This document shows, one piece after another, positions 2,967 to 64,000 of a stretch of 64,000 nucleotides of DNA (its first letter is position 1; each line of letters starts with the position of its first letter). Location of the stretch: the NCBI GenBank assembly GCA_035510735.1, contig DATKGN010000013.1, forward strand, positions 596 to 64,595. Direction: 5' to 3'. A model generated the notes under the pieces. That model saw only the letters and a list, made by a program, of their open reading frames with translations. It was not told the origin of the DNA and did no database searches. This stretch comes from Patescibacteria group bacterium. Lineage in GTDB: Bacteria > Patescibacteriota > Microgenomatia > UBA10105 > UBA927. The position numbers were made by a program, and so were the translations under genes.

Positions 2967-5000
2967 TTACAAGGTGACTTCAGTATCTGTTTGAAGATTA
3001 AATTTCTGGCGGTCGCTGCCGTTGAGCCGAATAAGAACCTGTTGCATGTCGGTTCCCGGCTGTTTTTGGAAAAGCAGGTGATACTTGCCGTCCGTTGATT
3101 TCACCGGCGAATTGTAGGTAAGCTCCAAACGCGCACTTCCTAAGGGATTCACAACAAGAAATCCGTCAAATTCCGTTTTCCCTAAGCTTTCAGATGTCGT
3201 CATCGGGGAGGCTGAACTCGTTTGCGGTGACTGCGTTCCTTTGCTGTCGACAAGTTTACTCCCTTTCGGTACGTAGACCCGCACCCAATCGCGAAGCGGG
3301 GCGTTTAAGCACAATCCTCCGCTCTCAAGTCCGCAGTCACTGCCCGGATAAGGATTCGTATAATCCACAGTCAATTTTGTCGTAATAGTTCCGTCGCCAT
3401 TCACTGTCGTATCTTTGGTAATTTTTTCATTCACAAACATATTGGATTTCGCTCCCCCCATATTGGCATTGTTAACATGGAGATAATCCCAACCCTTACC
3501 TTCTTGATATTTAAGAATGGCAGCAGTATCACCGGTCTGCATAATTCTCCCGCCCATATTAAAACTCTCAACACCTTTTTGCGCCTGAGGGTCATGCAGA
3601 TACGCAAGCATATGTTTTTCATTAATCTCAGTCAGCAACATTTGAAACAGTCTGCTCCAGTATTTTGAGGGAGAAACACCAAGTGCTTCCTGAAGAACAA
3701 GATGCAGTAATTGACCGATTTCTCCTTTTCGGTTGTCACGGACATACCCCACAGGACGTGAAGAATAGTCTTCGAGATTATAAATCGCTTTTGCACAATT
3801 ACATCGTTTATCAATATCAGCGCTGTATTCCCGCCCATCAACAAAAATAGGACCTAAAATTTTGAGCGTATCGACAAGCACATGAGTGTCGACTGCAAAG
3901 ATACCGTCAATCGGTTGAGTCCCAGCGGCATTTGAGTACATATCCTCAAATTGTTTCATCGATACTTTAAAATCTGGTGAGAGATTGCTATCCCGAAGAT
4001 TAAACGTATACACGCCTTTCAGGTATGCAAGAATTTCCGGAGGAACAGGATATTTTTTCTTAAGACCGCCGTCGAGTGCATATATATCATCCGATTTTTC
4101 CAATATCGCCTTACCTCTCACAAACCGAAATTGAGCATACGCCGTCATAAATCCACCGGTCGGCCGGAGTTCTTTATCATTTTGAAATATCACAAGATAC
4201 CGCTTATCCGTGGGCTCTCCGAGCATACTCGGTAAACTCATGAGAAGGGGCTGCGCGTTTACAAATAAGCTCGCAGCGTTATCGATCGTTTCTTTCAGTG
4301 AAATTAATTGCGGCCGAATTGAAGTACTACCGATATGATCGGGATAACGATCGGGGTTAATCATGTCGAGTTCAGTTTGCAGTTTTTCAATACTGCCGGC
4401 CATCTGGTTCACTTTAGGAGTGAGCGCGCTCATCGTTTTCACCGCAGTTTGAATACGGTCATCGGCGGTCCCTGCGACAAAAGTACTTTTCCCTTTAAGT
4501 CCCAACAGATCTGCATTCGGTTCTAGCGCTTCAACTGCGCGGTCTCCGGCATCCAATCCGTCAAACGCAGCATTTATAGCATGCTGGCCGTCAGTTACGT
4601 AGGCCCCTAACAACGGAACGAATGAGAGCGGCGCGAGCTTTTTATAATCGGTCTCAAATACGGTAAGCGCCTGTCTCGTGTCTGCAAGCCCGACTTTCGT
4701 TTTTTCAATATTTTCTGTTTTAACCGCACTTCCCGTTTCTCTCGCTTTAGCCATTACCACTTTTCCTTGTGCAATCACCCCACCGAGAGGTAGCAACATA
4801 ACGCCGATAATGAGAAGAAAAACCACGATAACGGCAACCGGAATTACAACATATTGCCATGGAAGTGGCTTTGATTTTTTGGGCATAGTTGCCTGCGTCT
4901 GCGTCTCAAGTTCTATACGTTTGAGTTCTTCTCCCATATACGTATTGTTCACGGAAATACCGTTTTTGTCAACAGGAATGTCAGATATATCACACTGCAC
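2967..5000 (-). CDS. DUF4012-family membrane-anchored extracytoplasmic protein
   Basis: There is a single N-terminal TM (WQYVVIPVAVIVVFLLIIGVMLL) and then a large soluble region. It contains the DUF4012-type core YLVIFQNDKELRPTGGFMTAYAQF. Members of this family typically sit beside polysaccharide loci. The track start at 5000 is a GTG, and ATG starts at 4937 or 4886 are alternatives. Confidence 0.65.
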   Translation of the reverse strand: MQCDISDIPVDKNGISVNNTYMGEELKRIELETQTQATMPKKSKPLPWQYVVIPVAVIVVFLLIIGVMLLPLGGVIAQGKVVMAKARETGSAVKTENIEKTKVGLADTRQALTVFETDYKKLAPLSFVPLLGAYVTDGQHAINAAFDGLDAGDRAVEALEPNADLLGLKGKSTFVAGTADDRIQTAVKTMSALTPKVNQMAGSIEKLQTELDMINPDRYPDHIGSTSIRPQLISLKETIDNAASLFVNAQPLLMSLPSMLGEPTDKRYLVIFQNDKELRPTGGFMTAYAQFRFVRGKAILEKSDDIYALDGGLKKKYPVPPEILAYLKGVYTFNLRDSNLSPDFKVSMKQFEDMYSNAAGTQPIDGIFAVDTHVLVDTLKILGPIFVDGREYSADIDKRCNCAKAIYNLEDYSSRPVGYVRDNRKGEIGQLLHLVLQEALGVSPSKYWSRLFQMLLTEINEKHMLAYLHDPQAQKGVESFNMGGRIMQTGDTAAILKYQEGKGWDYLHVNNANMGGAKSNMFVNEKITKDTTVNGDGTITTKLTVDYTNPYPGSDCGLESGGLCLNAPLRDWVRVYVPKGSKLVDSKGTQSPQTSSASPMTTSESLGKTEFDGFLVVNPLGSARLELTYNSPVKSTDGKYHLLFQKQPGTDMQQVLIRLNGSDRQKFNLQTDTEVTL

Positions 5001-5628
5001 CTTTACCCGATATCATCGCCCAGGGGCTCCTCAATAATATGACAATATCAAGCCACAAGGAGCTCTTTTTGACGTAATCAGCATCCATTTTAATTCTTTT
5101 GTCAAAATTGACTTCACTTCGCCCTGATACCTGCCATTGCCCGGTGATTCCCGGTTTCGCTGAAAGCACGACCTTCACGAGATCCCGCGTGTGCGGATAC
5201 TTCCGCTGCTGCTCGACAAGCTCATCGGGATAATACGGCCGCGGCCCTACAAGACTCATCTCCCCAATAAGAACGTTGAGAAGCTGAGGAATTTCATCAA
5301 TCGAATGTTTCCGTATAAATCGCCCGACATTTGTAACGCGTGGATCTTCGCGGAGTTTATAACTATTCCGCTTATATTCACCGTATAATTTTGCGAGCCG
5401 TGGATCTCTTCTCAATTTTTCATGGGCGTTTATCACCATCGACCGAAACTTAAAAAGTTTAAAAGGCTTGCCGTCTTTGCCTACACGTTGCGGCGTATCA
5501 GCAAAAATCGGTCCCAAACTGTCCCATTTGATGGCAATAGCGGTGATAATACAAAAAGGCATAAAAATAAGAGCCAGAATGAAACTGCCAAGGATATCAA
5601 TACAACGCTTCGTAAATGAATACATCAT
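4990..5628 (-). CDS. polyprenyl-phosphate phosphoglycosyltransferase (bacterial sugar transferase family, small WbaP/PglC-like initiating enzyme)
   Basis: A single re-entrant N-terminal helix is followed by the conserved sugar-transferase core KPFKLFKFRSM...DEIPQLLNVLIGEMSLVGPRP...PGITGQWQVSGR. Confidence 0.9.
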   Translation of the reverse strand: MMYSFTKRCIDILGSFILALIFMPFCIITAIAIKWDSLGPIFADTPQRVGKDGKPFKLFKFRSMVINAHEKLRRDPRLAKLYGEYKRNSYKLREDPRVTNVGRFIRKHSIDEIPQLLNVLIGEMSLVGPRPYYPDELVEQQRKYPHTRDLVKVVLSAKPGITGQWQVSGRSEVNFDKRIKMDADYVKKSSLWLDIVILLRSPWAMISGKGAV

Positions 5629-5642
5629 GGGCTTATTAGTAT

Positions 5643-6725
5643 TTAGGTAAGGTGATCGTTTTCAGTACCGGTCAGGCTTTCCACGAGAGATTTAATTTTT
5701 GATACTGAACTCTTTTTACATACCATAACGACATCATTGGTATTTACCACCAGCATATCGTCAAGATCAATGGTCACTACCAATTGGTCTGTATAATTAT
5801 ATACAAGGGAATCGCTTGTATTGTTAAGCATGACTTTGCCCTGGGTCACATTTTTATCAGCAGTCTCCTGGAGAGCCTCTTTCAGTGCTTCCCAGGCGCC
5901 GATATCGCTCCATTTCATATCCTCTGAAACAACGAGCGCATCTCCCGGATCTAGTTTTTCAAGGATTGCGTTATCGAAATGAATTTTTTCGAGTGTCGGA
6001 TATACTGAATCGAGCGTTTCATAAAATCTGGCCGTGTGAAGTTCTTCAACAATCCGTGATAACCCTTTATATAAATTCGGAGCAAACCTCTTATATCGTT
6101 CCCACAAAAAAGTCGGGGTGGTGACGAAATATCCGACATTCCATGCATGGTGACCGCTTTCAAAATAACGTTTTGCCGTGTGTTTATCTGGTTTATATTG
6201 AAAATCAATAAATGCATGGAAGGAAATACCGTTCATCGAAGCTACCTCTTTCCCGTATTCAATCCAACCTAAGTTATCACTGGCAAACCGGGGTTTTTGC
6301 GATACGAAAATAATTTTATTCGGATTTTTCTCAATAAGTGATCCCGCACTTTTCAAAATTTTCCGGAATAATACCTCTTCTTTGACCAGATGATCGCTCC
6401 AGAGAATTACCATGGGCTCCGTAGGCGATACTTTCGTCAAAATCCCTGCCATCAGCCCCACGGCAGGACCAACGTCACGCATCTCAGGCTCACCAATAAC
6501 ATGGTCAGGCGGCAATTTTGCAAGTTGCGACTGAACCATCGGCACATGCATTTTACCGGTTGCCACATAGATATCGGACCACGAAAAATCAGGCTGAATT
6601 CGGCCGGCAGCAAGCTGTAGAGTAGACTTGTCACCGATAATTTTTTCAAATTGTTTTGGCGACTTTTTACGGGAGAGAGGCCATAAACGGGTTCCCACGC
6701 CTCCGGCAAAAATAACTGCTTTCAT
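5643..6725 (-). CDS. manC: mannose-1-phosphate guanylyltransferase (GDP-mannose pyrophosphorylase, nucleotidyltransferase domain only)
   Basis: The N-terminus MKAVIFAGGVGTRLWPLSRKKSPKQF is the hallmark of ManC/CpsB-type NDP-sugar pyrophosphorylases. At 360 aa there is no C-terminal PMI cupin domain. Confidence 0.8.
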   Translation of the reverse strand: MKAVIFAGGVGTRLWPLSRKKSPKQFEKIIGDKSTLQLAAGRIQPDFSWSDIYVATGKMHVPMVQSQLAKLPPDHVIGEPEMRDVGPAVGLMAGILTKVSPTEPMVILWSDHLVKEEVLFRKILKSAGSLIEKNPNKIIFVSQKPRFASDNLGWIEYGKEVASMNGISFHAFIDFQYKPDKHTAKRYFESGHHAWNVGYFVTTPTFLWERYKRFAPNLYKGLSRIVEELHTARFYETLDSVYPTLEKIHFDNAILEKLDPGDALVVSEDMKWSDIGAWEALKEALQETADKNVTQGKVMLNNTSDSLVYNYTDQLVVTIDLDDMLVVNTNDVVMVCKKSSVSKIKSLVESLTGTENDHLT

Positions 6726-7849
6726 ATATATCTATTATATAACTCCTCAACGGTTTGTTTCATCTCACGATTAAAGCGCTCCTGACCGAATCGTTTCGCA
6801 TTCTCGCGGCAGAGGTTGTCATCATACCACTCATGATCAAATTGTTTCAAGGCGCGGGTAAGCCCATCTACCGATTGAGAGTCAAATAATAATCCTGTTT
6901 TCCCGTCTACAACAATCTCAGCCATGCCGCTTTTTTTATATGTGATAACCGGTTTTCCCATCGCCTGTGCTTCAACTGCAGCAATTCCGAAGTCTTCAAC
7001 GCCTGCAAAGACAAATGCTCGACAGTCGCGAAAATAATTAATTAACTCCCGATCCGTTACCGTTCCCACTAACTGAATTGTCGGTCCAGCTAATCTTTGA
7101 AGATGTATTTTTTCCACTCCTTCACCCACAATGACCAGCGGTAATTTCAGCTTATTACATGCTTCAACAACTAAATCAATCCGTTTATACGGAACCAACC
7201 GGGAAACAAGAAGAAAAAAACTGTGTGCCGCAGAAGAGACAGTTTTTTTCCCTTCTTGAAACATTGTAAGATCAACGGGAGGATAAATTACGCGATCAAC
7301 CGATTGATGATAATACGTTTGAATACGTTCTTTTACTATATCGGATATTGCGATATACCTGTCCGGACGGCTGCTGCCAATAATATCCCATTTGCGCAGC
7401 AATGGAGTCAACGTATTTAATGTTCGCCCGGTGACTACCCGAGGCAGACCTATATTGGGATTCTTCTCATACTCTTCTTTACCGCTCCATAGATACCGCG
7501 TCGGGGTAAGGCAATAACAAATATGGAGAGTCTGGGGCTTCGTAATAATATATTTTGCCTCAGCTGATGTAATTGAAATTACCACGTCGTATGTATCAAA
7601 TGAAAATGATTCAAATGCCATTGGCGTAAGCCACGCATAAAGCTCATGATGCCGTTTCGCAAACGGAAATCGCTGTAAAAATGAGGGCTTAACGTGAAAT
7701 ACCGATGCCCAACGGGCATGCTGTTTATCATACACAGCGGTGAATAACGGCGCATCGGGCCAGATTGCATGCATTGCCAACAGAACCCGTTCCGCCCCCC
7801 CAATTTTATTGATTCGGTCATATACAAATGCAATTTTTTTCGGTTTCAT
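6722..7849 (-). CDS. glycosyltransferase, GT-B fold (GT4 family)
   Basis: The C-terminal domain motif is EDFGIAAVEAQAMGKPVI (the E-x7-E region). The N-domain MKPKKIAFVYDRINKIGGAERV is GT4-typical. Confidence 0.8.
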   Translation of the reverse strand: MKPKKIAFVYDRINKIGGAERVLLAMHAIWPDAPLFTAVYDKQHARWASVFHVKPSFLQRFPFAKRHHELYAWLTPMAFESFSFDTYDVVISITSAEAKYIITKPQTLHICYCLTPTRYLWSGKEEYEKNPNIGLPRVVTGRTLNTLTPLLRKWDIIGSSRPDRYIAISDIVKERIQTYYHQSVDRVIYPPVDLTMFQEGKKTVSSAAHSFFLLVSRLVPYKRIDLVVEACNKLKLPLVIVGEGVEKIHLQRLAGPTIQLVGTVTDRELINYFRDCRAFVFAGVEDFGIAAVEAQAMGKPVITYKKSGMAEIVVDGKTGLLFDSQSVDGLTRALKQFDHEWYDDNLCRENAKRFGQERFNREMKQTVEELYNRYI

Positions 7850-8964
7850 AAAGTGGTTCCGACCCGCAAGTAGATATCGTATGTTTTGACAGCCAAATCA
7901 TGCCAGTTGTAACGAAGAAGAAATGGTTTAATCTTATTACTCATCTCACGACGCGTTGAATGTTCCGAAATCCGAACGAGGGCATCTTTCAATAATCCTG
8001 GCTTCCTGGTATCAACGAATGTTGCAAAATCTTCTAATATTTCCCGAAAAATTGGAATATCCGATACGATAACAGGGCAACCCGCTGCGAGCGCTTCAAG
8101 TGCCGGTAAACCGAATCCTTCCATCCGTGACGGGAACAGTAGTGCAATCGCATTGGCGTATAATGCATGAAGCTCTACGTCTCCGATATCATGTAAAAAC
8201 AGGACATGATCTTGAATTTCCGTCGCATACACAACTCCCGCAAGCCTCCGATAAAAATAATCATCAGGACCGACAAAGACAAGAAGTGCAGATTTTTTTA
8301 CCGCTTTCTGGTACTCCCGATACGCTTCGAGCATTAATTCAATATTTTTATGCGGATAGACATTACCGACATACAGAAAATAGTCCCCCGATATTGATGA
8401 TTTTGCTGTTGGAATATTTATTTTTTTCAAAAAATTCGGGTCAATGCCTTCATACGTTACAATAATTTTATCCTGATTAATTCCGAAATGTTTTATAATA
8501 TCGTCTTTCACAGTTTTTGAAACGGTAATGATTTTCCGCGCATTCATTATTCCCAGTCCAAGAACTATCCGGTATCCAAAACGACGGATTTTATAAAAAA
8601 AATACGGCAGCGTTGTTGCTTTACCTGTATCAGTCTGAAGAATGGTGAGGTCGTGAATTGTAATAATATACTTTCCGAAATATAAGATGGGCGCATTAAA
8701 ATATGGTATATGCACCAAATCAAGATGCTCTTTTGTAAACAACCACGGCATTACTATTTGCTCACGTACACTATGCCACGAAACATCGGCTAACCTTTTT
8801 GTCCACCGATCATTTGGAGGCGAAAACGTATGGTAATCCCTTTTTCGGAAAAAAAGGATGTACTGATTAACGGAATCAATATCGCCAAGCTCCCGTATAA
8901 GATTACGGATATACCGCCCGACACCCGTTTCGCCGATAAGACGCGCATCAATACCGATTTTCAT
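7846..8964 (-). CDS. glycosyltransferase, GT-B fold (GT4 family)
   Basis: The N-terminus is MKIGIDARLIGETGVGRYIRNL and the C-terminal motif is MEGFGLPALEALAAGCPVIVSD. Confidence 0.8.
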   Translation of the reverse strand: MKIGIDARLIGETGVGRYIRNLIRELGDIDSVNQYILFFRKRDYHTFSPPNDRWTKRLADVSWHSVREQIVMPWLFTKEHLDLVHIPYFNAPILYFGKYIITIHDLTILQTDTGKATTLPYFFYKIRRFGYRIVLGLGIMNARKIITVSKTVKDDIIKHFGINQDKIIVTYEGIDPNFLKKINIPTAKSSISGDYFLYVGNVYPHKNIELMLEAYREYQKAVKKSALLVFVGPDDYFYRRLAGVVYATEIQDHVLFLHDIGDVELHALYANAIALLFPSRMEGFGLPALEALAAGCPVIVSDIPIFREILEDFATFVDTRKPGLLKDALVRISEHSTRREMSNKIKPFLLRYNWHDLAVKTYDIYLRVGTTL

Positions 8965-8965
8965 A

Positions 8966-9844
8966 TTAGAGAGACCACTGTTTCAATAAAAACAGGCGGA
9001 ATACGTAAAAACTATTGACCAAAAAGCTTATAATCGGCCCATACTCTCGGGCATAATGTTTTTTGAAAAACAGCCAGTTATATTCGTGAAAATATATTTC
9101 CGTTGCCACACGGCGCTGCCGCAGAATATTGGCTCTTCCACTCTGTTTCTTTTTATGAAGAATGGAAACCAGAGGATAATACCAAATCTGCCATCCCGCC
9201 TGTTTTATCCTATATGCCCAATCTATATCCTCCGCATACATAAAATAATCTTCATCAAGTACGCCGACAGCGGCAACAACCTCGCGGCGCACCATAAAAA
9301 ATGCCCCGGAAATACAATCAACTTCGTGAGGTATGCGTAGATCTTTATATCCCTGGTGATATTCTCCAAACCACTGTGTCCTCGGAAACAATTTTTCGAG
9401 CTTTGCGATGTAGGAGAATGCGACCCATGGCGTCGGAAACCCGCGGTGACACGCCGGATCCATTGACCCGTCCGGAAGGACTAACTTACATGTAGCGGCT
9501 CCGGCCTTTGGATGCCCATCCATGAATGTGATCATTGATGTGAATGTGTTGACTGCAACTTCGGTATCCGAGTTAAGAAGAAGAATATATCGCCCTTTAG
9601 ACCCTTTTATCCCGGGATTATTTCCTGCCGCAAAGCCGATATTTTTCCCGTTTTCAATGAATGTCACCTCCGGAAATTCTTTTTTCACCATGGTCTGCGA
9701 TCCGTCAGACGAGGCATTATCACAGACAATAACCTCAATCGTGTATCCGCCAAGTTTTGTATTCCGAATGCTTGAGAGACATGCCCGAGTTACATCAACA
9801 GTATTAAAATTAAGAATAATAATGGAAAGATCAACGCGTTTCAT
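8966..9844 (-). CDS. glycosyltransferase family 2 (GT-A fold)
   Basis: Motifs include LSIIILNFNTVDVTRACLSSI...VIVCDNASSDGS and a DxD-like YAEDIDW. The start was moved to the internal ATG at 9844 (MKRVDLS), which reduces the overlap with the downstream GT4 to 14 nt. The track ORF extends to 9922. Confidence 0.75.
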   Translation of the reverse strand: MKRVDLSIIILNFNTVDVTRACLSSIRNTKLGGYTIEVIVCDNASSDGSQTMVKKEFPEVTFIENGKNIGFAAGNNPGIKGSKGRYILLLNSDTEVAVNTFTSMITFMDGHPKAGAATCKLVLPDGSMDPACHRGFPTPWVAFSYIAKLEKLFPRTQWFGEYHQGYKDLRIPHEVDCISGAFFMVRREVVAAVGVLDEDYFMYAEDIDWAYRIKQAGWQIWYYPLVSILHKKKQSGRANILRQRRVATEIYFHEYNWLFFKKHYAREYGPIISFLVNSFYVFRLFLLKQWSL

Positions 9845-11015
9845 ATGATTGTTTCCACACGGTATCAAGCACCTTGGCAATTTGTTCCCAACTGTACTTT
9901 TTTTCCACCAACGCTCGTGCATTCATCGTCATTCTAACCGTTTCTTTAGGATACATAAAAATATACTCAACCGCCTTCGTAAACTCCTCTTTCGTCTCGA
10001 CCTGACAATAATGCGTCCCGGAGAGCACATCAAGTCCCGTACTCCCGGCTTTCGTTGTCACAACGGCCGTTCCGCTTGCCATCGCCTCAAGAATCTTAAA
10101 CTTGCTCCCGCCTGCTATACCCATAGGCGCCACAAGAACGTCAGACTCCCGATAAATCCTTCGGATATCATCGATATCCTCACGGATATGCATATGATCT
10201 CCGGTAAACTGGCGAAGTGAACTCGGAAAACCTTTTCCGATGATTGTCAGAGTTACACTGGGCATTCGCGCACGAATGCCGGGCCAAATATCTCTCACCA
10301 GCGTTCGAACAGCTTCAACGTTCGGCGCCCACGCAAAATTACCAACGAATACTAATTTCGCGTTCTGTTTATCCCATGTATGCTTGTGATAAGAAAATGA
10401 ATGTATATCCACCCCGTTTGCAACAACAGCCGTTTTTTTCTTCGTTATGTTTGAAATAATTGCGGCATCGTTATCCGATACTGCAATAACGGATGACGCT
10501 TTCTTCCACACCTTCTCTTCCCAACGGCGGATTTTCCCGGCATCGGAAGAAAGGATTGGGCGTGCAAAAAAGAACGGATATGATTTGGCAAATTCACTAT
10601 ACACAGCATATTCAATATTATGTTCTGAAACGACCATGGGTATTGACCCTCTCTCAGGCACTGACGGATATACATAAAATGGCTCAAGATGGATGAGGTC
10701 ATATTTCTTCTTCGACAATTCATTCTGTATACACTCCTTCATGAGCGCATTGTCATACGTGGTTAAAAGTAACGGGTATGACCCGAACATTTTCGCGAGA
10801 TACGAGGCCTGCATAGCCCTACCGCGATAGATCATGTGCACGTCTGACAAAAACCCTAACGTATTTATGTAAGCGCGCTCCTTTTCATCTCGGATAAAAG
10901 AACAAAGGGTGATATCGTGATTCTTTGCGAGAATCTTGAGAAGATTATACATTCGCACCTGGCCCCCAGAATAGAGCGGGTACGGAAGTACAGCGCTAAT
11001 AAATAATATGTTCAT
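9831..11015 (-). CDS. glycosyltransferase, GT-B fold (GT4 family)
   Basis: The N-terminus MNILFISAVLPYPLYSGGQVRMYNLLK and the C-domain ...GIAGGSKFKILEAMASGTAVV are GT4-typical. Confidence 0.8.
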   Translation of the reverse strand: MNILFISAVLPYPLYSGGQVRMYNLLKILAKNHDITLCSFIRDEKERAYINTLGFLSDVHMIYRGRAMQASYLAKMFGSYPLLLTTYDNALMKECIQNELSKKKYDLIHLEPFYVYPSVPERGSIPMVVSEHNIEYAVYSEFAKSYPFFFARPILSSDAGKIRRWEEKVWKKASSVIAVSDNDAAIISNITKKKTAVVANGVDIHSFSYHKHTWDKQNAKLVFVGNFAWAPNVEAVRTLVRDIWPGIRARMPSVTLTIIGKGFPSSLRQFTGDHMHIREDIDDIRRIYRESDVLVAPMGIAGGSKFKILEAMASGTAVVTTKAGSTGLDVLSGTHYCQVETKEEFTKAVEYIFMYPKETVRMTMNARALVEKKYSWEQIAKVLDTVWKQSYETR

Positions 11016-16294: not shown

Positions 16295-16303
16295 AATGAT
16301 GAA

Positions 16304-19666: not shown

Positions 19667-19884
19667 GAGATATTCCTTTGCGTAAATCGTTCACGTAATA
19701 TGTAGGTCAATAAAAATCCTCCGGCATACAAAACCAGTCGCTCACCGGTGAAAAAAACCCACTTCGCATAAAGTGGAATCGCCACAAGAAGACACAGGAG
19801 TCCGGCATAAACGAACCACTTCGGTTTCCTTGCGCTAAATAATATGATGAAGATAACAAAAAATCCCAAATCCTGTATTTTCAT
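19663..19884 (-). CDS. small hydrophobic protein (2-3 TM), hypothetical
   Basis: The 73-aa product is almost entirely hydrophobic helices. It has an ATGA-type overlap with galE. It could be a genuine small membrane subunit or an overprediction. Confidence 0.3.
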   Translation of the reverse strand: MKIQDLGFFVIFIILFSARKPKWFVYAGLLCLLVAIPLYAKWVFFTGERLVLYAGGFLLTYILRERFTQRNIS

Positions 19885-19907
19885 ATTCGCGGCTGCATGT
19901 TTTTACG

Positions 19908-28723: not shown

Positions 28724-28781
28724 AATAATCTGCTAAATTGCTGGATACAATACCGAATATACCAGAGATTATAACTTATTT

Positions 28782-36238: not shown

Positions 36239-36247
36239 TCGTTTCCT

Positions 36248-36991: not shown

Positions 36992-36996
36992 AAGCT

Positions 36997-37977: not shown

Positions 37978-37981
37978 ATGT

Positions 37982-41774: not shown

Positions 41775-41775
41775 A

Positions 41776-43366: not shown

Positions 43367-43372
43367 AGATGA

Positions 43373-45425: not shown

Positions 45426-45439
45426 ACCGGTATTTTATG

Positions 45440-46264: not shown

Positions 46265-46268
46265 AATA

Positions 46269-50746: not shown

Positions 50747-50747
50747 A

Positions 50748-56295: not shown

Positions 56296-56822
56296 TGGAT
56301 TGATAAAGCCGTTGATAGTTCGTTATGAATATATAATCGCGTCGCACTCGCACGCTCCGGCTGCCATAGAAATTCATTGGGTGTCGTTTGAAGAAGTGTT
56401 GTTATTACAGTTTTATGTGCGATTGACGCTTCCTGTATTTCACTTCGAAACTGTGTCATATCATCCCCGCTTTGTTCAGCCGTAAGAACATTCGGCATGA
56501 TCGCGGCAAACTGGTCACTTGATCTATGAAGCGCATCGATTGCAAGAAGATACTGATTATAGTCAAAGAGTGTTTTAGCCTCGACAAGATATTTATCAGA
56601 TAGTCCGAGATGGTATTTTACCTGTGCAATATTACCGAAGTACCAATACTTATTGAATGTATCTATAAGTCTTGAGAGACGGTATAATTTGTTCCCTGGC
56701 ATATAGGAGGGGTATGGCAACACATATGAAGCAAACACATTATTATGCAAAAAAAATGTTCCAAGAAACAACAATATAACTGCGGAAACCATTCGTACAC
56801 CTTTATTTCTTCGATTTTCCAT
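56292..56822 (-). CDS. N-terminally anchored/secreted soluble protein, hypothetical
   Basis: An N-terminal hydrophobic segment VSAVILLFLGTFFL is followed by a roughly 140-aa hydrophilic domain. It has an ATGA-type overlap with the downstream membrane protein. Confidence 0.4.
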   Translation of the reverse strand: MENRRNKGVRMVSAVILLFLGTFFLHNNVFASYVLPYPSYMPGNKLYRLSRLIDTFNKYWYFGNIAQVKYHLGLSDKYLVEAKTLFDYNQYLLAIDALHRSSDQFAAIMPNVLTAEQSGDDMTQFRSEIQEASIAHKTVITTLLQTTPNEFLWQPERASATRLYIHNELSTALSIQ

Positions 56823-56827
56823 AAAGT

Positions 56828-57967
56828 TTAAAAAAACTTTTTACACGAAGAGCAAAAAAGAAACACTCCGTATGTACTAATTATATATGCAATCGGCATG
56901 AAGAGTATCAAATACCGTGACGTCGTCTGGCCTGTAGATAAAAACGCTAAATATACCAATGCCCAAAGAATATACGGAATAATTATATCCGGTAACCGAA
57001 TTTTCCGGATGATCCACCCAATCCCCGTAATAACAACTACTGTAGTCGCAATCGGCCAAAGGATATTCCACTGCGGGTCGGAAATAATCGGTGAATTACC
57101 ATACCAAACATACCAACGATTGAGATAAATAAGCGGCCAAACAGTCAATGGTAATATTAACTGGCTTTGATGATACGCGAACACCCATTTTTGGATACCG
57201 AGGAATTCCCTGATCGAATATCCAAGGATAAACACCCTGATATAGCTCATAAGGAGTATGGCAATAGAAATCGGCAATGTGGCACATAACCAAACAAGAC
57301 GGCGGTATTTTGATGTGATAATCAGCGATATTCCCCATGCTGCTACGATGGTCATACCGGAGATAAAAAACTTTGTTGATATAAACAATCCTAAAAATAC
57401 GCTCGCACCGGCAAAAAACAATATATATCTTCGTTTTTTCATATAGCCGATACTGAATATATACAATGCCGCCAACAAAAATACGAGCTGTATGATATCA
57501 AGAAGCGGCGTATAAACAAGCTGGTTGGTGATGAGAGGATCAAATGTAACAATGACAACCGGCACAAGAGACCACGGAATTGATTTCGTCATCATGTAGG
57601 CCGACAGATAGACAAGAGACAATGACGCGATGAAAAACAACAAATTCATCGTATTTTCATTGTGGAAAATCAACGCGGATAGTCCGATGCTGTATCTGCC
57701 AAGCGGCGGTGTGTCGGGAGCGATAAGAATGGGCGGAACACCCCGCGCGTACGCTCCTCCCGCATATGCATTCACCGTTTCGTCTGGAATCCAACCTTTT
57801 GGATGTTTATTCGCGTATTGAGAATCGTTATACACACGAAGTAATCCAGGATAACGCTGCCAATAACTTGTATTTATGTATTCTGAGGCGTGTGCCGTCA
57901 ATACTTTACCAATATTCCAAACAATAACGAACACGCAGAAACAAATGAACAATTTTCGTAGGATCAT
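56828..57967 (-). CDS. polytopic membrane protein (about 9-10 TM) with an N-terminal extracytoplasmic segment, hypothetical
   Basis: The product is 379 aa. A signal/anchor is followed by a roughly 90-aa hydrophilic stretch (YINTSYWQRYPGLLRVYNDSQYANKHPKGWIPDE) and then TM helices. Confidence 0.45.
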   Translation of the reverse strand: MILRKLFICFCVFVIVWNIGKVLTAHASEYINTSYWQRYPGLLRVYNDSQYANKHPKGWIPDETVNAYAGGAYARGVPPILIAPDTPPLGRYSIGLSALIFHNENTMNLLFFIASLSLVYLSAYMMTKSIPWSLVPVVIVTFDPLITNQLVYTPLLDIIQLVFLLAALYIFSIGYMKKRRYILFFAGASVFLGLFISTKFFISGMTIVAAWGISLIITSKYRRLVWLCATLPISIAILLMSYIRVFILGYSIREFLGIQKWVFAYHQSQLILPLTVWPLIYLNRWYVWYGNSPIISDPQWNILWPIATTVVVITGIGWIIRKIRLPDIIIPYILWALVYLAFLSTGQTTSRYLILFMPIAYIISTYGVFLFCSSCKKFF

Positions 57968-58749
57968 GTCGTATTTCGTAAGGATAACCCTTTTATGTAG
58001 GCAAGCGGAAAGTGGAAAGCGGAATATAGAGAAAATTCAAAACCTGTTAAACCATCAATAAACCCTTTATGCCGGAGAAATATTGAAAAAAAAGTTGAAA
58101 TAGGCTTTATAAAAAAATATGTAACGACCTGCATCGGGTGTGAATATGTGTGATTTTTTACCAATTCCTGTGCAGTCAGTTTGATGTACGTATCGGCTTT
58201 TTTCCAATAGTCAGCCCGCGTCATGTAAGAATAATGAAGCATTGGGTGAATAATGTAGCCGACTTTCCCGTCAACAGCTATTTGCTCGTGGACGCTTTTA
58301 CATGGAAATGAAGCTTTCCCCCGCCGTACGAGACGCATAACATAATCTGGATATTGACCGCCTTTCTTCATTACATGACCCCAAAAATAATTCTTCCTCG
58401 GTATGAAATATCCGTTCGTACCTCCATTTTCTTTCTTATTCGTTATGGAAAGAATTTCCTCTCGAAGATTATCCGGGATCACTTCATCCGCATCTAATTG
58501 CAAGATCCATTCACCTTTGCAGGCCACAAGCGCCTTCTGTTTATTGATATGAAATATAGACGGATTATTTGTCTCAATGATATGGGCTCCGAACGTCTTA
58601 GCAATTGAGACCGTTTTATCTGTCGACCTCCCGTCAACCAACATGACTTCATCGGTAAATGATGCGACTGATTGTAAACACCGTGCAATATTTTTCTCTT
58701 CGTTATATGTCGCAATCGCAATGGAAAGAGTTATATTTTTTTCCGCCAT
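57964..58749 (-). CDS. glycosyltransferase family 2 (LPS-core-type small GT2)
   Basis: Motifs include LSIAIATYNEEKNIARCLQSV, VMLVDGRSTDKT and WILQLDADEVI (DxD). Confidence 0.75.
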   Translation of the reverse strand: MAEKNITLSIAIATYNEEKNIARCLQSVASFTDEVMLVDGRSTDKTVSIAKTFGAHIIETNNPSIFHINKQKALVACKGEWILQLDADEVIPDNLREEILSITNKKENGGTNGYFIPRKNYFWGHVMKKGGQYPDYVMRLVRRGKASFPCKSVHEQIAVDGKVGYIIHPMLHYSYMTRADYWKKADTYIKLTAQELVKNHTYSHPMQVVTYFFIKPISTFFSIFLRHKGFIDGLTGFEFSLYSAFHFPLAYIKGLSLRNTT

Positions 58750-60377
58750 ATTGTTTCGCCCAGTCCGGCAATAACGGTTAAACTCAACAGTACGCTAATA
58801 CTCATGTAATTCGCTATTTTTCGCAATTTCGTATCGGTAAAAATAATACTCACGGTGTGGTCGCCGCTTGCAATATGAAACGTTATAAGTCCGCGATACT
58901 CCGGATCCTGGAATTGCATATCTGTTTTCACCCCATCAACATAAACATTCCATCCCGGAAAATAGAGTGTATTTTCAACAAGGCGGGCGGATGTTGGTAC
59001 CGAAACCTGATAAATGTGCTTCGTGGTCGTCCGTGAAATGGGTTTAATGGTGGCTACTCCCGAGATGACCCCGATCGGATCGTTCGGCCGATGCTCCATA
59101 AACCGAACGGACCATATGGGGCTGCTCTCACCGGTATCGGTGGTCGAATTATAAATACCGGAATAATATGATTCCGGTTTTACCGAGTAGGCTTTCGGTT
59201 TCCACATCGTATAGCTTAAAACTACCGTAAGAATACAAAACCCCGCGATCACATACATCTCGTATCGCTTAAGGTGATTACAGAACGCATCGATCCCTAT
59301 GCCACCGAGTATCGAAACGGAAAACACGGAAACAGACAAGAAGCGCCACGGGAACTGAAATTTTTGAAGTAGTGTGATCTGATCCCAAATGAATGCTGAC
59401 TGGGCGGTCATGATAAACAGAGAAATGACAAAGACGGCAACCGCAGCTGAAACAAACCAAACGAATGCCTTTGTTTGCTTTCTTGTCACTGCCCATATGG
59501 CCGCCAGTACGCCAATCCACCCGGTAAATCCTATCGATTTGGACAATTCATCGCTGGTTCCGTAACTCCAACCTGAAAAAATAAATTTTATCCACGGCAC
59601 AAAGCGGTCAGAAACCCCACCGGCAGTCACGATATCACGGAGTGTATATTTCCCCTCAAATTCCGCCGGAATCCAGAAAAATGCCGATAATCCAAATCCG
59701 CAAAAAAACGCTACAAGACTAGAAAAAAGAAAAACGTTGTCCTTCTTTGTGACGAAAAAATAAAGATAGATAATATACAAAAGAATGATCGGCATAAACA
59801 TGATGGATATTGCGTTATGTGAAAGAATAAGCGCAGCGACTGTGAGAGAAACCCCGATCGCATACCATACCTTTTTATTCAGAGCAGCTCTGTTATGGGC
59901 AAGGCAAAATAATAAATAGAGAACGAGAGGCGGAAAAACGAATGCAATGTGTTCACCGATTGCTCCGCGGACTGCCATATCAACGAATCGATACGGTGCA
60001 AACGCATATAAAACCGCAGCTATTACCCCGACCCTCTTATTGAAAGCAGCCGCAGCCCAAAGATACATCATAAGTGCACTTGCGATATACGCCACGACGA
60101 ATACCAATTTCGTCGCATCAACAAAAGAAAATCCAAAGGCATGAAAGAGCGATGCAACATATGACGGCAACGGATACAAAAACATGAGAATCGGATGACC
60201 GTAGCCCCAATTGAGATTCGCCGCCCAGCGAGGTACGAGGTTCCCTTCAGACAGAGACTGGTAAAAATTTGCGATCCGAGCCACATGATCCGGCCCGTCA
60301 TGGGTCACCGGAAGACCGGGAACTAAAAAATACAGGAGAGGCAATATGCAAAGACTTACAATAATTATCCAATTCAT
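58731..60377 (-). CDS. polytopic membrane protein, family B (paralog 2 of 2); candidate GT-C-like transferase
   Basis: The product is 548 aa. The N-terminal loop motif PVTHDGPDHVARIANFYQSLSEGNLVPRWAANLNWGYGHPILMFLYP matches the 53564..55192 product. Confidence 0.5.
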   Translation of the reverse strand: MNWIIIVSLCILPLLYFLVPGLPVTHDGPDHVARIANFYQSLSEGNLVPRWAANLNWGYGHPILMFLYPLPSYVASLFHAFGFSFVDATKLVFVVAYIASALMMYLWAAAAFNKRVGVIAAVLYAFAPYRFVDMAVRGAIGEHIAFVFPPLVLYLLFCLAHNRAALNKKVWYAIGVSLTVAALILSHNAISIMFMPIILLYIIYLYFFVTKKDNVFLFSSLVAFFCGFGLSAFFWIPAEFEGKYTLRDIVTAGGVSDRFVPWIKFIFSGWSYGTSDELSKSIGFTGWIGVLAAIWAVTRKQTKAFVWFVSAAVAVFVISLFIMTAQSAFIWDQITLLQKFQFPWRFLSVSVFSVSILGGIGIDAFCNHLKRYEMYVIAGFCILTVVLSYTMWKPKAYSVKPESYYSGIYNSTTDTGESSPIWSVRFMEHRPNDPIGVISGVATIKPISRTTTKHIYQVSVPTSARLVENTLYFPGWNVYVDGVKTDMQFQDPEYRGLITFHIASGDHTVSIIFTDTKLRKIANYMSISVLLSLTVIAGLGETIWRKKI

Positions 60378-60383: not shown

Positions 60384-62030
60384 TTAATGATCTGTAATGT
60401 GAATGGCATCCGTTCCGTCAAGATATTTGATTGTATCAAGCGTGCCCGCTGGAATTTCTTTCGGCGTGCCGATATACAAGGTTTTTCCGTCTTTCACTTC
60501 ACGGCCCCAGTCAATAGGTCGAAAATCGTAAATATCGAAATGATTTTTCACTTCAGCGAAACCACCCGAAGCGGTCCCACCACCCTTTAAGTAGGCAACC
60601 GGATCATATTTCGTATAAAAAAGGAAAAACATGTGCGGCTGTTCAAGCTTTGTAGAAACAACAATTTTTGTATATTGATTTCTATGCACCCGTGCGTACT
60701 CAACCGCCTGTTTATATCCGTACTGCCAGTACTCCGAAAACTCATGATCCATATGGACGTAATACATATCAAGATAATAGGCGAGATTAAATATCGCTAC
60801 TCCAACCAGCACGATAATCCAAATACGGCGAAAACGAGATCCACTCTTAACCCACAACAGAAAAGAAATCAAACCGAATGCGGTGAACAGTTGAAAAACG
60901 GGAAGAAAAACTAACGTCCGTATGGCGTGGGGCAGCTCGGTTGTCACTGATGCTGCAACCGGTGCGATAAGAAACCAAGAGAAGAGAAGGATACTCAGTT
61001 TTCCCCCGCGCTTCCACACTGCCACCATGCCCCACAAAAGAAACGGCAGCTCCCAGAGGTACAATAATCCCATATCTGGCGCATGATGCCGCGGATTATC
61101 ACCGTTTAAGAAAAGCCATTGAAAAGAATAGTGAGATATGTACCCATCAAATATGGTCTTCGCCCAAACAAGCCGCCGGTTGTCAAATAGGACTCCCAAT
61201 TTATTACCCGCTTCAAGATCATCTTCCAGAAGCTGAGTACTCCGTGCGAGTAAACCTGTCTGATCGGATAAAGAACTGGTGCCTTTGAGGCGCATAAGCG
61301 CCGTGGGATTTAACGATACGATAATGAGAGGCAGTACGGTCAATAAACCGATCACAAAAGCCACAATAACGCTACGCGAACGGCTGATAAACTCCTTCCA
61401 CGTTAATGCAACGATGATGAGAAATATGAGCGGCGCAAAAACCCGTTCACTATGATATGCATAAAGAGACAATCCGAACAAAAATGCGCTCAAAGCCAAC
61501 CACCACGCTGATTTTCGCCCCCGGAATAGTGCATAGGCGCCCCAAATATTTAAAGTGACGCCGGTATTCGCTTCAAAGGCTATCCGGGAGAACTGGATGT
61601 GCCACGGCGATATTGCAAGTAAAAATGCAGCAAAAAGTGGTATGAACGATTCCCTGTGATCACTTTTTTCGCGCCGATCAAGCAAAATGAGTTCCTGCGT
61701 GAGGAAATACACGCCTAAAACAGCAAACAACCCCATAATCGCCGACGGGAGCCGAACGGCCCACACAGTAAGCCCGAAAACAGCAACAGACGGGATTGTC
61801 AGATAGACGTAAAGCGGTGGCTTATAATCATCATAGGATCGAAGCGATAAGGGCAGCTTCGTTCCGTACTCATCCCTGCCGGTTTTCAGAATTGAATACG
61901 CATTGTACCCAAGGGCAACTTCGTCCCAATCAGGGCTTACCGGAACCTTCCCGAGCTGCCAAAACCGCAGAACCCCTGCGATGAGCATTATAAAGATAAG
62001 TAACAATACTTTTTTGGAAAGTATATTCAT
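60384..62030 (-). CDS. GT-C fold membrane glycosyltransferase, ArnT/PMT-like (tandem copy 1)
   Basis: The product is 548 aa. Motifs include VSPDWDEVALGYNAYSILKTGRDEYGTKLPL, YDDYKPPLYVY and RLPSAIMG. Confidence 0.65.
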   Translation of the reverse strand: MNILSKKVLLLIFIMLIAGVLRFWQLGKVPVSPDWDEVALGYNAYSILKTGRDEYGTKLPLSLRSYDDYKPPLYVYLTIPSVAVFGLTVWAVRLPSAIMGLFAVLGVYFLTQELILLDRREKSDHRESFIPLFAAFLLAISPWHIQFSRIAFEANTGVTLNIWGAYALFRGRKSAWWLALSAFLFGLSLYAYHSERVFAPLIFLIIVALTWKEFISRSRSVIVAFVIGLLTVLPLIIVSLNPTALMRLKGTSSLSDQTGLLARSTQLLEDDLEAGNKLGVLFDNRRLVWAKTIFDGYISHYSFQWLFLNGDNPRHHAPDMGLLYLWELPFLLWGMVAVWKRGGKLSILLFSWFLIAPVAASVTTELPHAIRTLVFLPVFQLFTAFGLISFLLWVKSGSRFRRIWIIVLVGVAIFNLAYYLDMYYVHMDHEFSEYWQYGYKQAVEYARVHRNQYTKIVVSTKLEQPHMFFLFYTKYDPVAYLKGGGTASGGFAEVKNHFDIYDFRPIDWGREVKDGKTLYIGTPKEIPAGTLDTIKYLDGTDAIHITDH

Positions 62031-63727
62031 ATATCAAAAATTACTAACTGGTGATACCCGTCAAGAGCATTAACCGTTTTAAGGATATGCGCACCCTTGG
62101 GTACCCAACCGGGATCGGCAATATATAACGCTTTCGGATTTAATGCTCCCGGCGGCATCGCAGTAATAAATCGGTATGTATCAAAACCGTACACGTGGTA
62201 AAACCCGGCGGCATCAAACGAGGATTTTTTAATTGTTAAAAAAGTATTCGGATCATACGTTGTATAAAATAATGTGTACATATACGCCCGGCCGATGGTT
62301 TCAGATATATAAATCGTGTCGTATTTATTCTTCACGGACTGAGCATACCGAATTGCCTCACGATACCCATACTGCCATTCACCCGAATACAGTTTCGCGT
62401 AATGCGCATAATAATAAAAAAGGTAATACGATATGCTAAACACATAAAATAGTATAAGAACACAATATATACCTTTCTGAATAACCCGTGTAGATAATTT
62501 TCCTTTCCCCAGTTTCTGAGCCCAAGAACATATGGTGTATATGCCAAATGCGATAAAAATCTGCCACGTGGGCAAGGTATCAAGTATCCGTAGTGCATGA
62601 GGAGTTTCACGTGCGGTTGCTGCAGGAACAATTGCAAGGGTAAGCCATAGGATCAAAAACCAACCAATCTGAGGATACGTTGCAAACAGCGACACAAAAC
62701 CGACAAGAAGAAGCGGTGCATCTATCGCGTATAATTGTCCCACATCCTGAATCGAAAACTTCGGATTTCCGTCCCCCCTGATAAAGAGGAACCAGGGCTG
62801 CAGATTGTCCGTATAATGCCGGAGAAAATCCAATGCGTATCCCATCCGGCGGTTGTGAAGAATTTTTGCAAGTAGTGAATTATGCTCGTATGTGATCCGT
62901 GTATTTGCGGTTTCCACTACCGATAAGTCAGTAAATATATTTACCTCGTTAAACCGAATTCTTGATTCCTTTGATAAAAGATGCGGTACGATGGGCGCCA
63001 TGAGAAGAAGTGCCAATATAGCCCCGATAATAAATTCTTTTTTGTGCTTCCATATGTTTTTCCAAAAAAACAGAACAAGAACTATGCCGAACATCGGTGC
63101 AAAATATCGTGAGCTGTTAAACGTATAAACAGCACCTATGAAAGGAACCCAGGCAATGTACCAATACCGCGGGGTGGTAATAGATTTAAAAACCAAATAG
63201 ATACCCAATACCACAAGTAACAGTGCAATATTTGCTTCAAATCCCGCCCGGGATAAATTAATATGCCACGGAGAAAATGCCAATAGTGCGGTTGAAAGTA
63301 TGGGCAGCCAGTTAAGAAGATGAGACAATTCCGTCTTCTGATTCTTGGCCGTAAGCAGGGAAAACAATTCAATAACCAAGTAATACGTTAATAACACGGT
63401 AAGTGTCCCTGACAGGGCCGACGGAAGCCGGACCGCTAGCTCACTTAGACCGAATACCGCCACAAATGGGACAGTCGCATATATCGCGAGGGGCGGTTTG
63501 TAATCACCGTAGGAAATGAATGTATCAAGCGGTAAAAACCGTCCGTGTTCATCTTTTCCGGTTTTAAGAATTGAATACGCATTATATCCGATTGACACTT
63601 CATCCCACGAAAGTGACGGCGGTATCGAAGTTATTTTATACGTCCGCAAAAAGAAAGCGATAACGACGATTATAAGTAACAAAACTGTTTGGATTGTCCT
63701 TTTCATATAACTAGATAAGCGCCTCAT
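62027..63727 (-). CDS. GT-C fold membrane glycosyltransferase, ArnT/PMT-like (tandem copy 2)
   Basis: The product is 566 aa. The segment PPSLSWDEVSIGYNAYSILKTGKDEHGRFLPL...YGDYKPPLAIY...RLPSALSG is clearly paralogous to 60384..62030. It has an ATGA-type overlap with that gene. Confidence 0.65.
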   Translation of the reverse strand: MRRLSSYMKRTIQTVLLLIIVVIAFFLRTYKITSIPPSLSWDEVSIGYNAYSILKTGKDEHGRFLPLDTFISYGDYKPPLAIYATVPFVAVFGLSELAVRLPSALSGTLTVLLTYYLVIELFSLLTAKNQKTELSHLLNWLPILSTALLAFSPWHINLSRAGFEANIALLLVVLGIYLVFKSITTPRYWYIAWVPFIGAVYTFNSSRYFAPMFGIVLVLFFWKNIWKHKKEFIIGAILALLLMAPIVPHLLSKESRIRFNEVNIFTDLSVVETANTRITYEHNSLLAKILHNRRMGYALDFLRHYTDNLQPWFLFIRGDGNPKFSIQDVGQLYAIDAPLLLVGFVSLFATYPQIGWFLILWLTLAIVPAATARETPHALRILDTLPTWQIFIAFGIYTICSWAQKLGKGKLSTRVIQKGIYCVLILFYVFSISYYLFYYYAHYAKLYSGEWQYGYREAIRYAQSVKNKYDTIYISETIGRAYMYTLFYTTYDPNTFLTIKKSSFDAAGFYHVYGFDTYRFITAMPPGALNPKALYIADPGWVPKGAHILKTVNALDGYHQLVIFDI

Positions 63728-64000
63728 CCCAATACTTCAGTGCGCCAAGCACAAATACCATTGAAATAAATGCAACATGGCTGTTATTAAAATAACGGCT
63801 CACATACCACACGACAAAAAGTGTCGCCGCATGGACGATAATGAGCGATGACACTGTTTTTGTTTTTCCGATATACCAAATACCTGCACCGAGAGCCGGA
63901 ATGCCCAACAGAACCTGCCAGATTACAAATGGATAATTATCATGAATCGTCCTAATCACACCGCCGCCAACTAATAACATGCCTAAACCGTATCCAGATA
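63711..64000 (-). CDS. small hydrophobic membrane protein, partial (frame open to window end); possibly a GtrA/DUF2304-like partner of the GT-C genes
   Basis: The visible product has 3 predicted TM. The reading frame continues without a stop beyond position 64000, so the true N-terminus is not in the window. Confidence 0.3.
   Translation of the reverse strand, partial: SGYGLGMLLVGGGVIRTIHDNYPFVIWQVLLGIPALGAGIWYIGKTKTVSSLIIVHAATLFVVWYVSRYFNNSHVAFISMVFVLGALKYWDEALI

Follow-up and report, generated by a model that had tools for sequence, protein, structure and literature searches.

The window analysed here, a stretch of 64,000 nucleotides (nt) from a Patescibacteria group bacterium (contig DATKGN010000013.1 of GenBank assembly GCA_035510735.1), is filled from position 2967 to its right end by a dense cluster of genes whose products, to judge by their families and predicted folds, would build a surface glycan. 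Genes are called g1, g2 and so on in order of position. Sequence comparison with related loci divides the cluster into three layers: a conserved core, g5-g17; a semi-conserved part, g18-g23 and g39-g55; and a strain-specific insert, g24-g38, of low guanine-plus-cytosine (GC) content.

Between positions 4990 and 64000 we counted 51 complete genes and one cut gene, in agreement with the more than 50 that an earlier description made from the letters alone (the sequence-only reading) had placed in an uninterrupted, single-strand run of about 59 kb. Fifty open reading frames (ORFs) of at least 100 residues are complete between 4990 and 63727 in the ORF listing and gene table. Coding sequence on the minus strand covers 96.8% of bases 4990-64000, or 97.2% if an ORF of 73 residues is counted, and coding sequence on either strand covers 98.8%. 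The claim of a single strand was nevertheless slightly overstated, because one gene, the family 4 glycosyltransferase (GT4) g27 (30509-31657), is encoded on the plus strand. The short spacing that had been described is real: only two gaps exceed 60 nt, one of 241 nt (19667-19907), occupied by the 73-residue gene, and one of 99 nt (30410-30508) between a divergent gene pair, and start and stop codons overlap by four bases at 12 junctions (11 ATGA, one TTGA), some of which cross module borders. The right edge lies, as had been expected, beyond the window, whose end is reached by a cut membrane-protein ORF; an exact-sequence search with g55 matched no record that would extend it. Strand uniformity alone is no evidence of an operon, because the flanking glyS, recO and DUF4012 genes are co-oriented with the cluster and the cumulative GC skew falls steadily through the whole window. 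Scans of the window against Rfam and for tRNA genes gave no matches.

The core (2967-18647) comprises, by family assignment, a DUF4012 protein, a phosphoglycosyltransferase (PGT), a ManC-like enzyme, four full-length GT4 and a half-length one, two family 2 glycosyltransferases (GT2), an acetyltransferase, a PMT_2-type glycosyltransferase of the GT-C fold, and g13, a fusion of a WaaL-like domain with a GT-C domain:

2967-5000, minus: g5, DUF4012 membrane-anchored protein of 677 residues with a large outside domain (PF13196, 81 bits)
4990-5628, minus: g6, small priming polyprenyl-phosphate PGT (Bac_transf 202 bits; TIGR03025/WbaP C-terminal domain 247 bits, below cut-off)
5643-6725, minus: g7, mannose-1-phosphate guanylyltransferase-like, a ManC without the PMI domain (PF00483, PF22640; TIGR01479 224 bits, below cut-off)
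6722-8964, minus: g8 and g9, two GT4 of the GT-B fold (Glycos_transf_1 100 and 102 bits)
8966-9922, minus: g10, GT2 (PF00535 76 bits)
9831-11015, minus: g11, GT4 (PF13692 76 bits)
11012-12448, minus: g12, PMT/PMT_2-type GT-C of 478 residues with about 11 transmembrane (TM) helices (PMT 30.0 bits, cut-off 22.7; PMT_2 30.7 bits, cut-off 26.1)
12445-15453, minus: g13, 1002-residue fusion, WaaL/Wzy_C-like at about 1-500 and GT-C at about 500-910, with a small C-terminal beta domain
15428-16294, minus: g14, GT2 with C-terminal TM segments (PF00535 85 bits)
16304-16963, minus: g15, hexapeptide-repeat O-acetyltransferase, WcaF-like (PF00132; NF007797 85.7 bits, below cut-off)
16900-18647, minus: g16 (full GT4) and g17 (GT4 N-terminal half), the upstream end of the core

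This core always adjoins recO and glyS. A Microgenomates contig of 1.02 Mb (L086) shows the gene order of the window, running recO, DUF4012, PGT, ManC, GT4, GT4, GT2, GT4, PMT_2, g13, GT2, acetyltransferase, GT4, half-GT4. A metagenome scan with the g13 family yielded 80 loci, and we took all counts over those with room for the gene concerned. Genes g6 to g17 are present in order in 87-100% of these, even where g13 identity is as low as 33-35%: g12 was found in 52/52, g16 in 45/45, g9 in 33/33, g6 in 25/27 and g17 in 34/38, whereas beyond the core the figures drop to 10/36 for g18, 12/31 for g19 and 2/24 for g20. Because DUF4012 and recO come next wherever the flank of a locus extends that far, the true left edge is g5 at 2967, one gene earlier than the edge at 4990 given before. 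The g5 gene adjoins the PGT gene in L086, in a further locus (L066) and in 23 metagenome loci. In loci of Microgenomates and WWE3 a DUF4012 gene invariably adjoins those for PGT and recO, and a DUF4012 family has been described as common to the candidate phyla radiation (CPR) and Gram-positive bacteria and linked to exopolysaccharide (EPS) clusters (PMC6744442). At the other end, g17 (18051-18647, minus) is a stand-alone N-terminal half-domain of 198 residues directly upstream of the full-length g16; relatives keep the same split, with 185-200 and about 382 residues.

The sequence-only reading had proposed a WaaL/Wzy-like fusion, and the predicted fold of g13 bears this out. When its AlphaFold model is compared with solved structures, the N-terminal half matches the WaaL/Wzy_C fold and the C-terminal half a GT-C of ArnT/PMT-like type; the window protein has no Pfam match of its own. 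Comparison of homologues shows that D544 and D545, which follow a TM helix, are invariant. More than 1848 full-length homologues were found, 47-73% identical among the 120 listed and carrying no annotation. The N-terminal half is the only Wzy_C/WaaL-fold protein in the cluster, and sequence cannot separate ligase from polymerase in this fold. We found no description of Wzy_C-PMT_2 fusions in the literature searched.

The GT-C half of g13 belongs to a much larger set. A hydropathy scan identifies 18 polytopic proteins including the Wzx flippase, or 17 without it. On sequence profiles and structural models, 13 of the 17 are GT-C-fold proteins and one is probably so, while two carry motif leads only and one is without assignment. 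Four (g12, g41, g53 and g54) pass the Pfam cut-offs for PMT, PMT_2 or PTPS_related, and the GT-C matches of g34 and g55 fall just below them; g13, g20, g21, g23, g29, g30, g48 and g51 lack a Pfam GT-C match of their own. Paralogy, hhalign or the Pfam matches of homologues place g29, g30, g34, g48, g51 and g55 in the class, AlphaFold models compared with solved structures place g23 and the C-terminal half of g13 there, and g21 joins them through its profile match to g23. Fold comparison was needed because single-sequence searches of the PDB (g13, g20, g21, g23, g46 and g49) and profile searches gave nothing meaningful; the g23 profile had no matches among PDB sequences. BLAST resolves three groups of full-length paralogues, {g29, g30, g34} (27-31% identical in pairs over full length), {g48, g53} and {g54, g55}. 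The hhalign program links the first of these to the C-terminal half of g13 with a probability of 98.8%, g12 to {g54, g55} with 96.4% and to g41 with 96%, and {g54, g55} to g23 with 86%; jackhmmer searches started from g53 or g54 recruit the g12 family. An acidic motif in the first loop outside the membrane follows a predicted TM helix in these proteins (DD in g23 and the C-terminal half of g13; DE in g29, g30, g34, g41, g51, g54 and g55; HDG in g48 and g53), with the topology of the loops taken from a crude hydropathy scan only. The membrane proteins outside the core are as follows:

20910-22778, minus: g20, probable GT-C of 622 residues with about 15 TM helices (no Pfam match)
22781-24721, minus: g21, predicted AftD/STT3-fold GT-C of 646 residues, paralogue of g23 (hhalign to the g23 family 99.9% over 602 columns)
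24762-25739, minus: g22, membrane protein of 325 residues with an N-terminal TM helix, an outside domain of about 150 residues and a C-terminal TM bundle (no family match)
25736-28006, minus: g23, GT-C by predicted fold, 756 residues, with a periplasmic beta-rich domain and GGDD at 41-44
32757-34493, 34499-36238 and 38971-40662, minus: g29, g30 and g34, GT-C paralogues (BLAST)
46269-47600, minus: g41, PMT_2-type GT-C of 443 residues (PF13231 49 bits, above cut-off)
51431-52657, minus: g46, polytopic protein of about 370-408 residues (weak match to AZOBR_p60025 'glycopolymer formation', 29.8 bits)
53564-55192, minus: g48, PTPS_related-type GT-C, paralogue of g53 (30% identity over 535 residues; shared HDG after the first TM helix)
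55141-56822, minus: g49 (384 residues, about 9 TM helices) and g50 (176 residues, one TM helix, weak DUF5667), from the family scans
56828-57967, minus: g51, small PMT_2-type GT-C of 379 residues (about 40% of listed homologues carry PF13231 or PF02366)
58731-60377, minus: g53, PTPS_related-type GT-C (PF10131 32.7 bits, above cut-off)
60384-63727, minus: g54 and g55, paralogous PMT_2-type GT-Cs, 35% identical, with WDE after the first TM helix (PF13231 32.1 bits, above cut-off, and 25.7 bits, just below)
63725-64000, minus: one more membrane protein, cut, with only its C-terminal end in the window (open frame, hydrophobic sequence)

The g21/g23 pair stands apart from the known families. In a collection of 5.8 billion proteins g23 has 56 homologues only, none with a Pfam domain, which makes it a sequence-orphan family. 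Its AlphaFold2 model (pLDDT 90.9) is matched by Foldseek to STT3 (1e-6) and to AftD (6w98_A, 1.9e-6), with a TM-score of 0.45 over 670 columns. For g21 there is a weak match to GT-C_AftD (PF11847, 15 bits with a cut-off of 26, E 0.0045) and another weak one to MmpA. The g21 protein begins at a GDG motif (MNVFFASGDGPFYY) and lacks the first TM helix of its paralogue; its relatives are of similar length. Homologues of g21 and g23 are accompanied by g22 in L087, L132, L146 and L169. The g46 ORF, read from its longest possible start (TTG), overlaps g47 by 152 nt; translation probably begins at an internal ATG, M37 or M43. Wrongly called start codons likely account in the same way for several other overlaps, of 40-92 nt.

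Family scans with Pfam and NCBIfam define the remaining categories, and here too the earlier counts held up well: one priming PGT (g6); six nucleoside diphosphate (NDP)-sugar enzymes (g7, g18, g19, g28, g37 and g38); nine GT4, of which eight are full-length and one is the half-domain g17, for the roughly nine GT-B enzymes claimed; one acetyltransferase (g15) and four S-adenosylmethionine (SAM) methyltransferases (g24, g26, g31 and g36); and one Wzx (g44). The number of GT2 enzymes was nearly exact, with 10 by Pfam against about 11, and at least 12 further large polytopic membrane proteins became 16 besides Wzx and g13. Outside the core, the genes other than those of membrane proteins listed above are:

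18686-19666, minus: g18, UDP-glucose 4-epimerase GalE (TIGR01179 382 bits, above the cut-off of 262)
19663-19884, minus: two-TM membrane protein of 73 residues, filling the largest apparent gap and overlapping the g18 start by ATGA
19908-20852, minus: g19, NDP-sugar dehydratase/decarboxylase-like enzyme of the short-chain dehydrogenase/reductase (SDR) type (PF01370 181 bits; NCBIfam matches all below cut-offs)
28052-44404, minus except g27: variable block g24-g38, 16 kb, GC 0.35-0.41, with methyltransferases g24, g26, g31 and g36, GT2 g25, g32 and g33, and GT4 g35 (Pfam, NCBIfam)
28052-44404, minus: in the same block, sugar enzymes, the SDR proteins g28 and g37 and the PseB/FnlA-like dehydratase g38 (Pfam, NCBIfam)
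30509-31657, plus: g27, GT4 (Pfam)
44406-46330, minus: g39 and g40, GT2 (PF00535 92 and 98 bits)
47581-48693, minus: g42, GT4 (PF00534 114 bits)
48700-51446, minus: g43 (GT2), g44 (Wzx/MOP flippase) and g45 (GT2), by Pfam
52506-53603, minus: g47, GT4 (PF00534 95 bits)
57964-58749, minus: g52, GT2 (PF00535 71 bits)

The Wzx protein g44 matches PF01943 over nearly its full length at 27.8 bits, against a cut-off of 28.2 (E 2e-6), and its orthologues carry PF01943. A homologue of the 73-residue gene lies between two epimerase genes in L086, at the same position.

The semi-conserved part thus appears, from these assignments, to add GalE, other sugar-nucleotide enzymes, Wzx, two synthase-like GT2 and about ten GT-C to the core. 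In the closest relative (L085 and L087, g13 73% identical) g23 is followed by about 1.8 kb, encoding a methyltransferase and a GT8, and then by homologues of g39-g45; because this short segment stands in the place of g24-g38, those genes are a variable insert. Another locus (L168) carries homologues in the order g53-g52-g51-g47-g44-g43-g42-g41-g40 together with further PMT_2 genes, in all six GT-Cs in 17 kb, and in L169 homologues of g25, an inverted g27, g23, g22 and g21 lie upstream of the core. In 16/21 loci the 10 kb upstream of the core contain one or more GT-C-like ORFs. The single supercluster of the sequence-only reading therefore stands as a dense run of genes but not as one evolutionary unit: it is a conserved core with added modules. 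The g27 homologue of L169 (3549-4715, 44% identical) is likewise inverted and again has a g25 homologue as its neighbour, so that module and inversion move together. In L168 (GCA_964521295.1) the g52 homologue at 4772-7054 is a protein of 760 residues, a GT2 domain followed by about 500 residues without a Pfam match. A phage, a plasmid or an assembly chimera was considered as the source and rejected, since the flanks are syntenic with relatives and L169 has homologues of g25 and g27 in a matching context.

By sequence comparison the host is an uncultured, ultra-small Patescibacterium of Microgenomates type (CPR). Its glycyl-tRNA synthetase is at most 62% identical to that of any GTDB species representative, with the best matches in Patescibacteria metagenome-assembled genomes, and where the source of a g13 homologue is named, it is the Microgenomates group or Gottesmanbacteria. 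Exact copies of the window proteins were found on short metagenome contigs only. The genomes of relatives are about 1 Mb in size, of which a locus of about 60 kb would take roughly 6%. Left of glyS, two small ORFs, g1 (11-382, plus) and g2 (431-913, minus), have no family match; g2 encodes 160 residues with one TM helix, and its counterpart in the exact-match contigs is a 155-residue gene.

From the families and folds, the gene order and its conservation we infer, with a confidence somewhat above even, that this is the principal locus for assembly of a cell-envelope glycoconjugate, in which a lipid-linked glycan, made in the cytoplasm and flipped, would be lengthened on the outside by GT-C enzymes and then ligated. 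The presence of a single PGT and a single Wzx in the cluster speaks for one pathway. The following substrates, order of steps and acceptor are proposals. The PGT g6 would prime a polyprenyl phosphate carrier, on which the cytoplasmic GT4 and GT2 enzymes may assemble a lipid-linked oligosaccharide from GDP-mannose, UDP-galactose or UDP-glucose, and 6-deoxy or amino sugars. Wzx would then flip this oligosaccharide across the membrane. On the outer face, where known GT-C enzymes use polyprenyl-phosphate sugars, the GT-C series could extend and branch it, each enzyme adding one sugar from a polyprenyl-phosphate monosaccharide donor. Such donors might be made by g43 and g45, which flank g44, and possibly by other GT2 enzymes. 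This pairing of donor synthases with GT-Cs is supported by distant loci in which genes for a g45-like GT2 and a g21-like GT-C recur as neighbours immediately upstream of the core. Finally, g13 would pass the completed glycan on to an acceptor through its WaaL-like domain, and its GT-C domain may add or prepare a sugar at the same site.

Several observations weigh against this pathway. No Pfam match to a Wzz/polysaccharide co-polymerase (PCP) or to an LCP ligase was found in any scanned ORF, nor to a GtrA-type flippase among the scanned ORFs, a set that leaves the 73-residue ORF (19663-19884) outside; g5 might putatively replace the missing co-polymerase, or act as a scaffold. Although g43 and g45 resemble polyprenyl-phosphate sugar synthases in sequence, their best NCBIfam matches (PpgS, ArnC, AglJ at 106 bits, and Dol-P-hexose transferase) score 42-106 bits, far below cut-offs of 325-529. 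The roughly 17 cytoplasmic transferases and at least 13 GT-Cs exceed what one repeat unit needs, so that several products rather than one are plausible. At least one transcriptional break is likely because g27 is inverted, and scans for promoters and terminators over 24-64 kb, at or below the expectation from shuffled sequence, were uninformative on operon structure. Assignments are also incomplete. The g20 protein is probably a GT-C, but its links are weak: in a family of 901 cluster representatives, 3/81 members match Dpy19, and hhalign connects it to g23 (93%) and g21 (84%) over partial regions only. No significant family match was found for g22, g46 or g49 in the Pfam and NCBIfam scans. 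The W-N-DG-HY-IA motif of g46 recalls PIG-V-type GT-Cs, and g49 likewise offers a motif resemblance, both of them leads rather than tests; g46 had no match in the PDB search, and neither protein had a homologue when the retrieved loci were searched with jackhmmer.

One alternative is that the locus serves mainly protein O-glycosylation, with the PMT and PMT_2 GT-Cs acting directly on secreted proteins such as type IV pilins or S-layer proteins, the GT-C paralogues reflecting many substrates or sugars, and the Wzy_C-like domain of g13 serving as an oligosaccharyltransferase of the PglL/TfpO type. It overlaps with the glycoconjugate pathway, from which the acceptor chiefly distinguishes it. The PMT cut-off is passed by g12, and g13 is predicted to pair a Wzy_C/WaaL fold with an ArnT/PMT-like one, the two enzyme types, TfpO and TfpW, that Pseudomonas uses for pilin glycosylation; CPR bacteria, moreover, depend on type IV pili. 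In Saccharibacteria, glycosylation has been described as unexplored (PMC11623550). However, family scans found no pilin or S-layer genes in or beside the cluster and the window proteins contain no WWDYG-type motif, while a pathway for a polymer or oligosaccharide would explain the single PGT, Wzx and the many cytoplasmic transferases just as well. We consider O-glycosylation as the main role unlikely. A broader reading, which we hold to be about as improbable, is a lineage-wide system of general surface glycosylation in Microgenomates, and perhaps in further CPR bacteria, with a logic like that of the endoplasmic reticulum (ER) or of mycobacteria: a lipid-linked oligosaccharide would be produced in the cytoplasm and flipped, at least a dozen GT-Cs, including g21 and g23, would elongate it on the outside, a bifunctional g13 would transfer it en bloc to protein (pilins or S-layer) or wall, and the variable modules would form a surface code of the strain. 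If true, such a strain-specific code would be relevant to host attachment or phage evasion in episymbionts.

A different kind of explanation is that unrelated glycan operons with separate products have come to lie side by side in a recombination hot spot of a compact, co-oriented genome. The modular structure speaks for this, with the 16-kb low-GC insert missing from the closest relative, g18-g23 kept in about a third of loci or fewer, and g27 inverted, and so do the co-orientation of the housekeeping neighbours and the steadily falling GC skew. Yet among about 50 genes only one codes for a priming enzyme and only one for Wzx, independent genomes repeatedly carry GT-C-rich extensions immediately upstream of the core, and the very tight spacing, including the four-base overlaps, continues across module borders. 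Chance juxtaposition therefore seems doubtful to us. That the large membrane proteins are for the most part transporters or non-glycosyltransferases of another kind, the outcome that the sequence-only reading had named as fatal to it, could draw on g22, g46, g49 and the weak links of g20 but is largely refuted and very improbable, since 13/17 are GT-C by Pfam, profile or fold, the Pfam and NCBIfam scans matched a transporter family in Wzx alone, and the transporter matches in the g23 fold search were poor (probability 0.1-0.3, TM-score at most 0.1).

CPR bacteria have very small genomes and probably spend their lives attached to other microbes, and to our knowledge their surface chemistry is almost unexplored. 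That about 6% of the genome would be given to this locus, and that the order of its core is kept across a large lineage, suggests a central rather than an accessory role for the glycan in the envelope. The variable region may mark strain-level surface diversity. The fusion g13 and the orphan g21/g23 family offer concrete targets, and the locus, which is among the densest natural collections of GT-C genes known to us, should be useful for studying how this class of enzymes diversified.

How does the cluster compare with known systems? It can be set beside Wzx/Wzy loci for O-antigen, capsule or EPS, with which it shares a Bac_transf PGT, GT4 and GT2 enzymes, sugar-nucleotide genes, an acetyltransferase, a MOP-type Wzx and a Wzy_C/WaaL-fold protein, as well as a variable middle of lower GC content like that of serotype loci. 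Unlike them, it is three to four times larger, has a ligase-like domain fused to a GT-C and no Wzz/PCP detectable by Pfam, belongs to a CPR host, and has a first 15 kb or so that is conserved across the lineage rather than hypervariable. It also holds at least 13 GT-Cs against 0-1, as the sequence-only reading had said in calling their number far above that of ordinary O-antigen or capsule loci. WaaL itself and PglL/TfpO, which share the Wzy_C domain, differ from g13 in lacking its full GT-C and C-terminal beta domain, and a lipid A-core acceptor cannot be assumed here; the window contains no lipopolysaccharide genes.

For the GT-Cs, other systems offer parallels. As in the three-component systems (GtrA/GtrB/GtrC, CsbB/GtcA/YfhO and ArnC/ArnT), synthase-like GT2 enzymes, g43 and g45 (both below cut-offs), are found beside GT-Cs; unlike in those systems, no GtrA was detected and the GT-Cs far outnumber the candidate synthases. 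With eukaryotic ER glycosylation by the ALG enzymes and oligosaccharyltransferase (OST) the cluster shares fold and pathway logic only, not any demonstrated orthology, and en bloc transfer would use a WaaL-fold domain in place of an STT3-type protein. A canonical OST was considered and rejected, because a pattern search of all window proteins found no WWDYG and g23 is STT3-like by fold only. The resemblance in scale to mycobacterial arabinogalactan and lipoarabinomannan (LAM) synthesis (EmbA/B/C, AftA-D, PimE, MptA/B), noted earlier, holds in part. Both systems would extend a glycan outside the cell by many GT-Cs with polyprenyl-phosphate donors, and the model of g23 and the profile match of g21 to it suggest that both share the AftD/STT3-type fold with a periplasmic domain. 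There is, however, no sequence-level relation to Emb or Aft proteins beyond the weak match of g21 to PF11847, no genes for decaprenyl-phospho-arabinose synthesis were found in the window, and the GT-Cs form one array here rather than being spread over the genome. We found no description of GT-C-rich loci in CPR bacteria in the searchable literature. Overall, the parts come from known families, and by analogy the logic of the locus fits Wzx-dependent assembly combined with extracytoplasmic glycosylation of the Gtr, Arn or mycobacterial type; what is unusual is the density of GT-Cs, the conserved WaaL::GT-C fusion, the orphan g21/g23 family, the core maintained across a lineage and the share of a genome of about 1 Mb that the locus would take.

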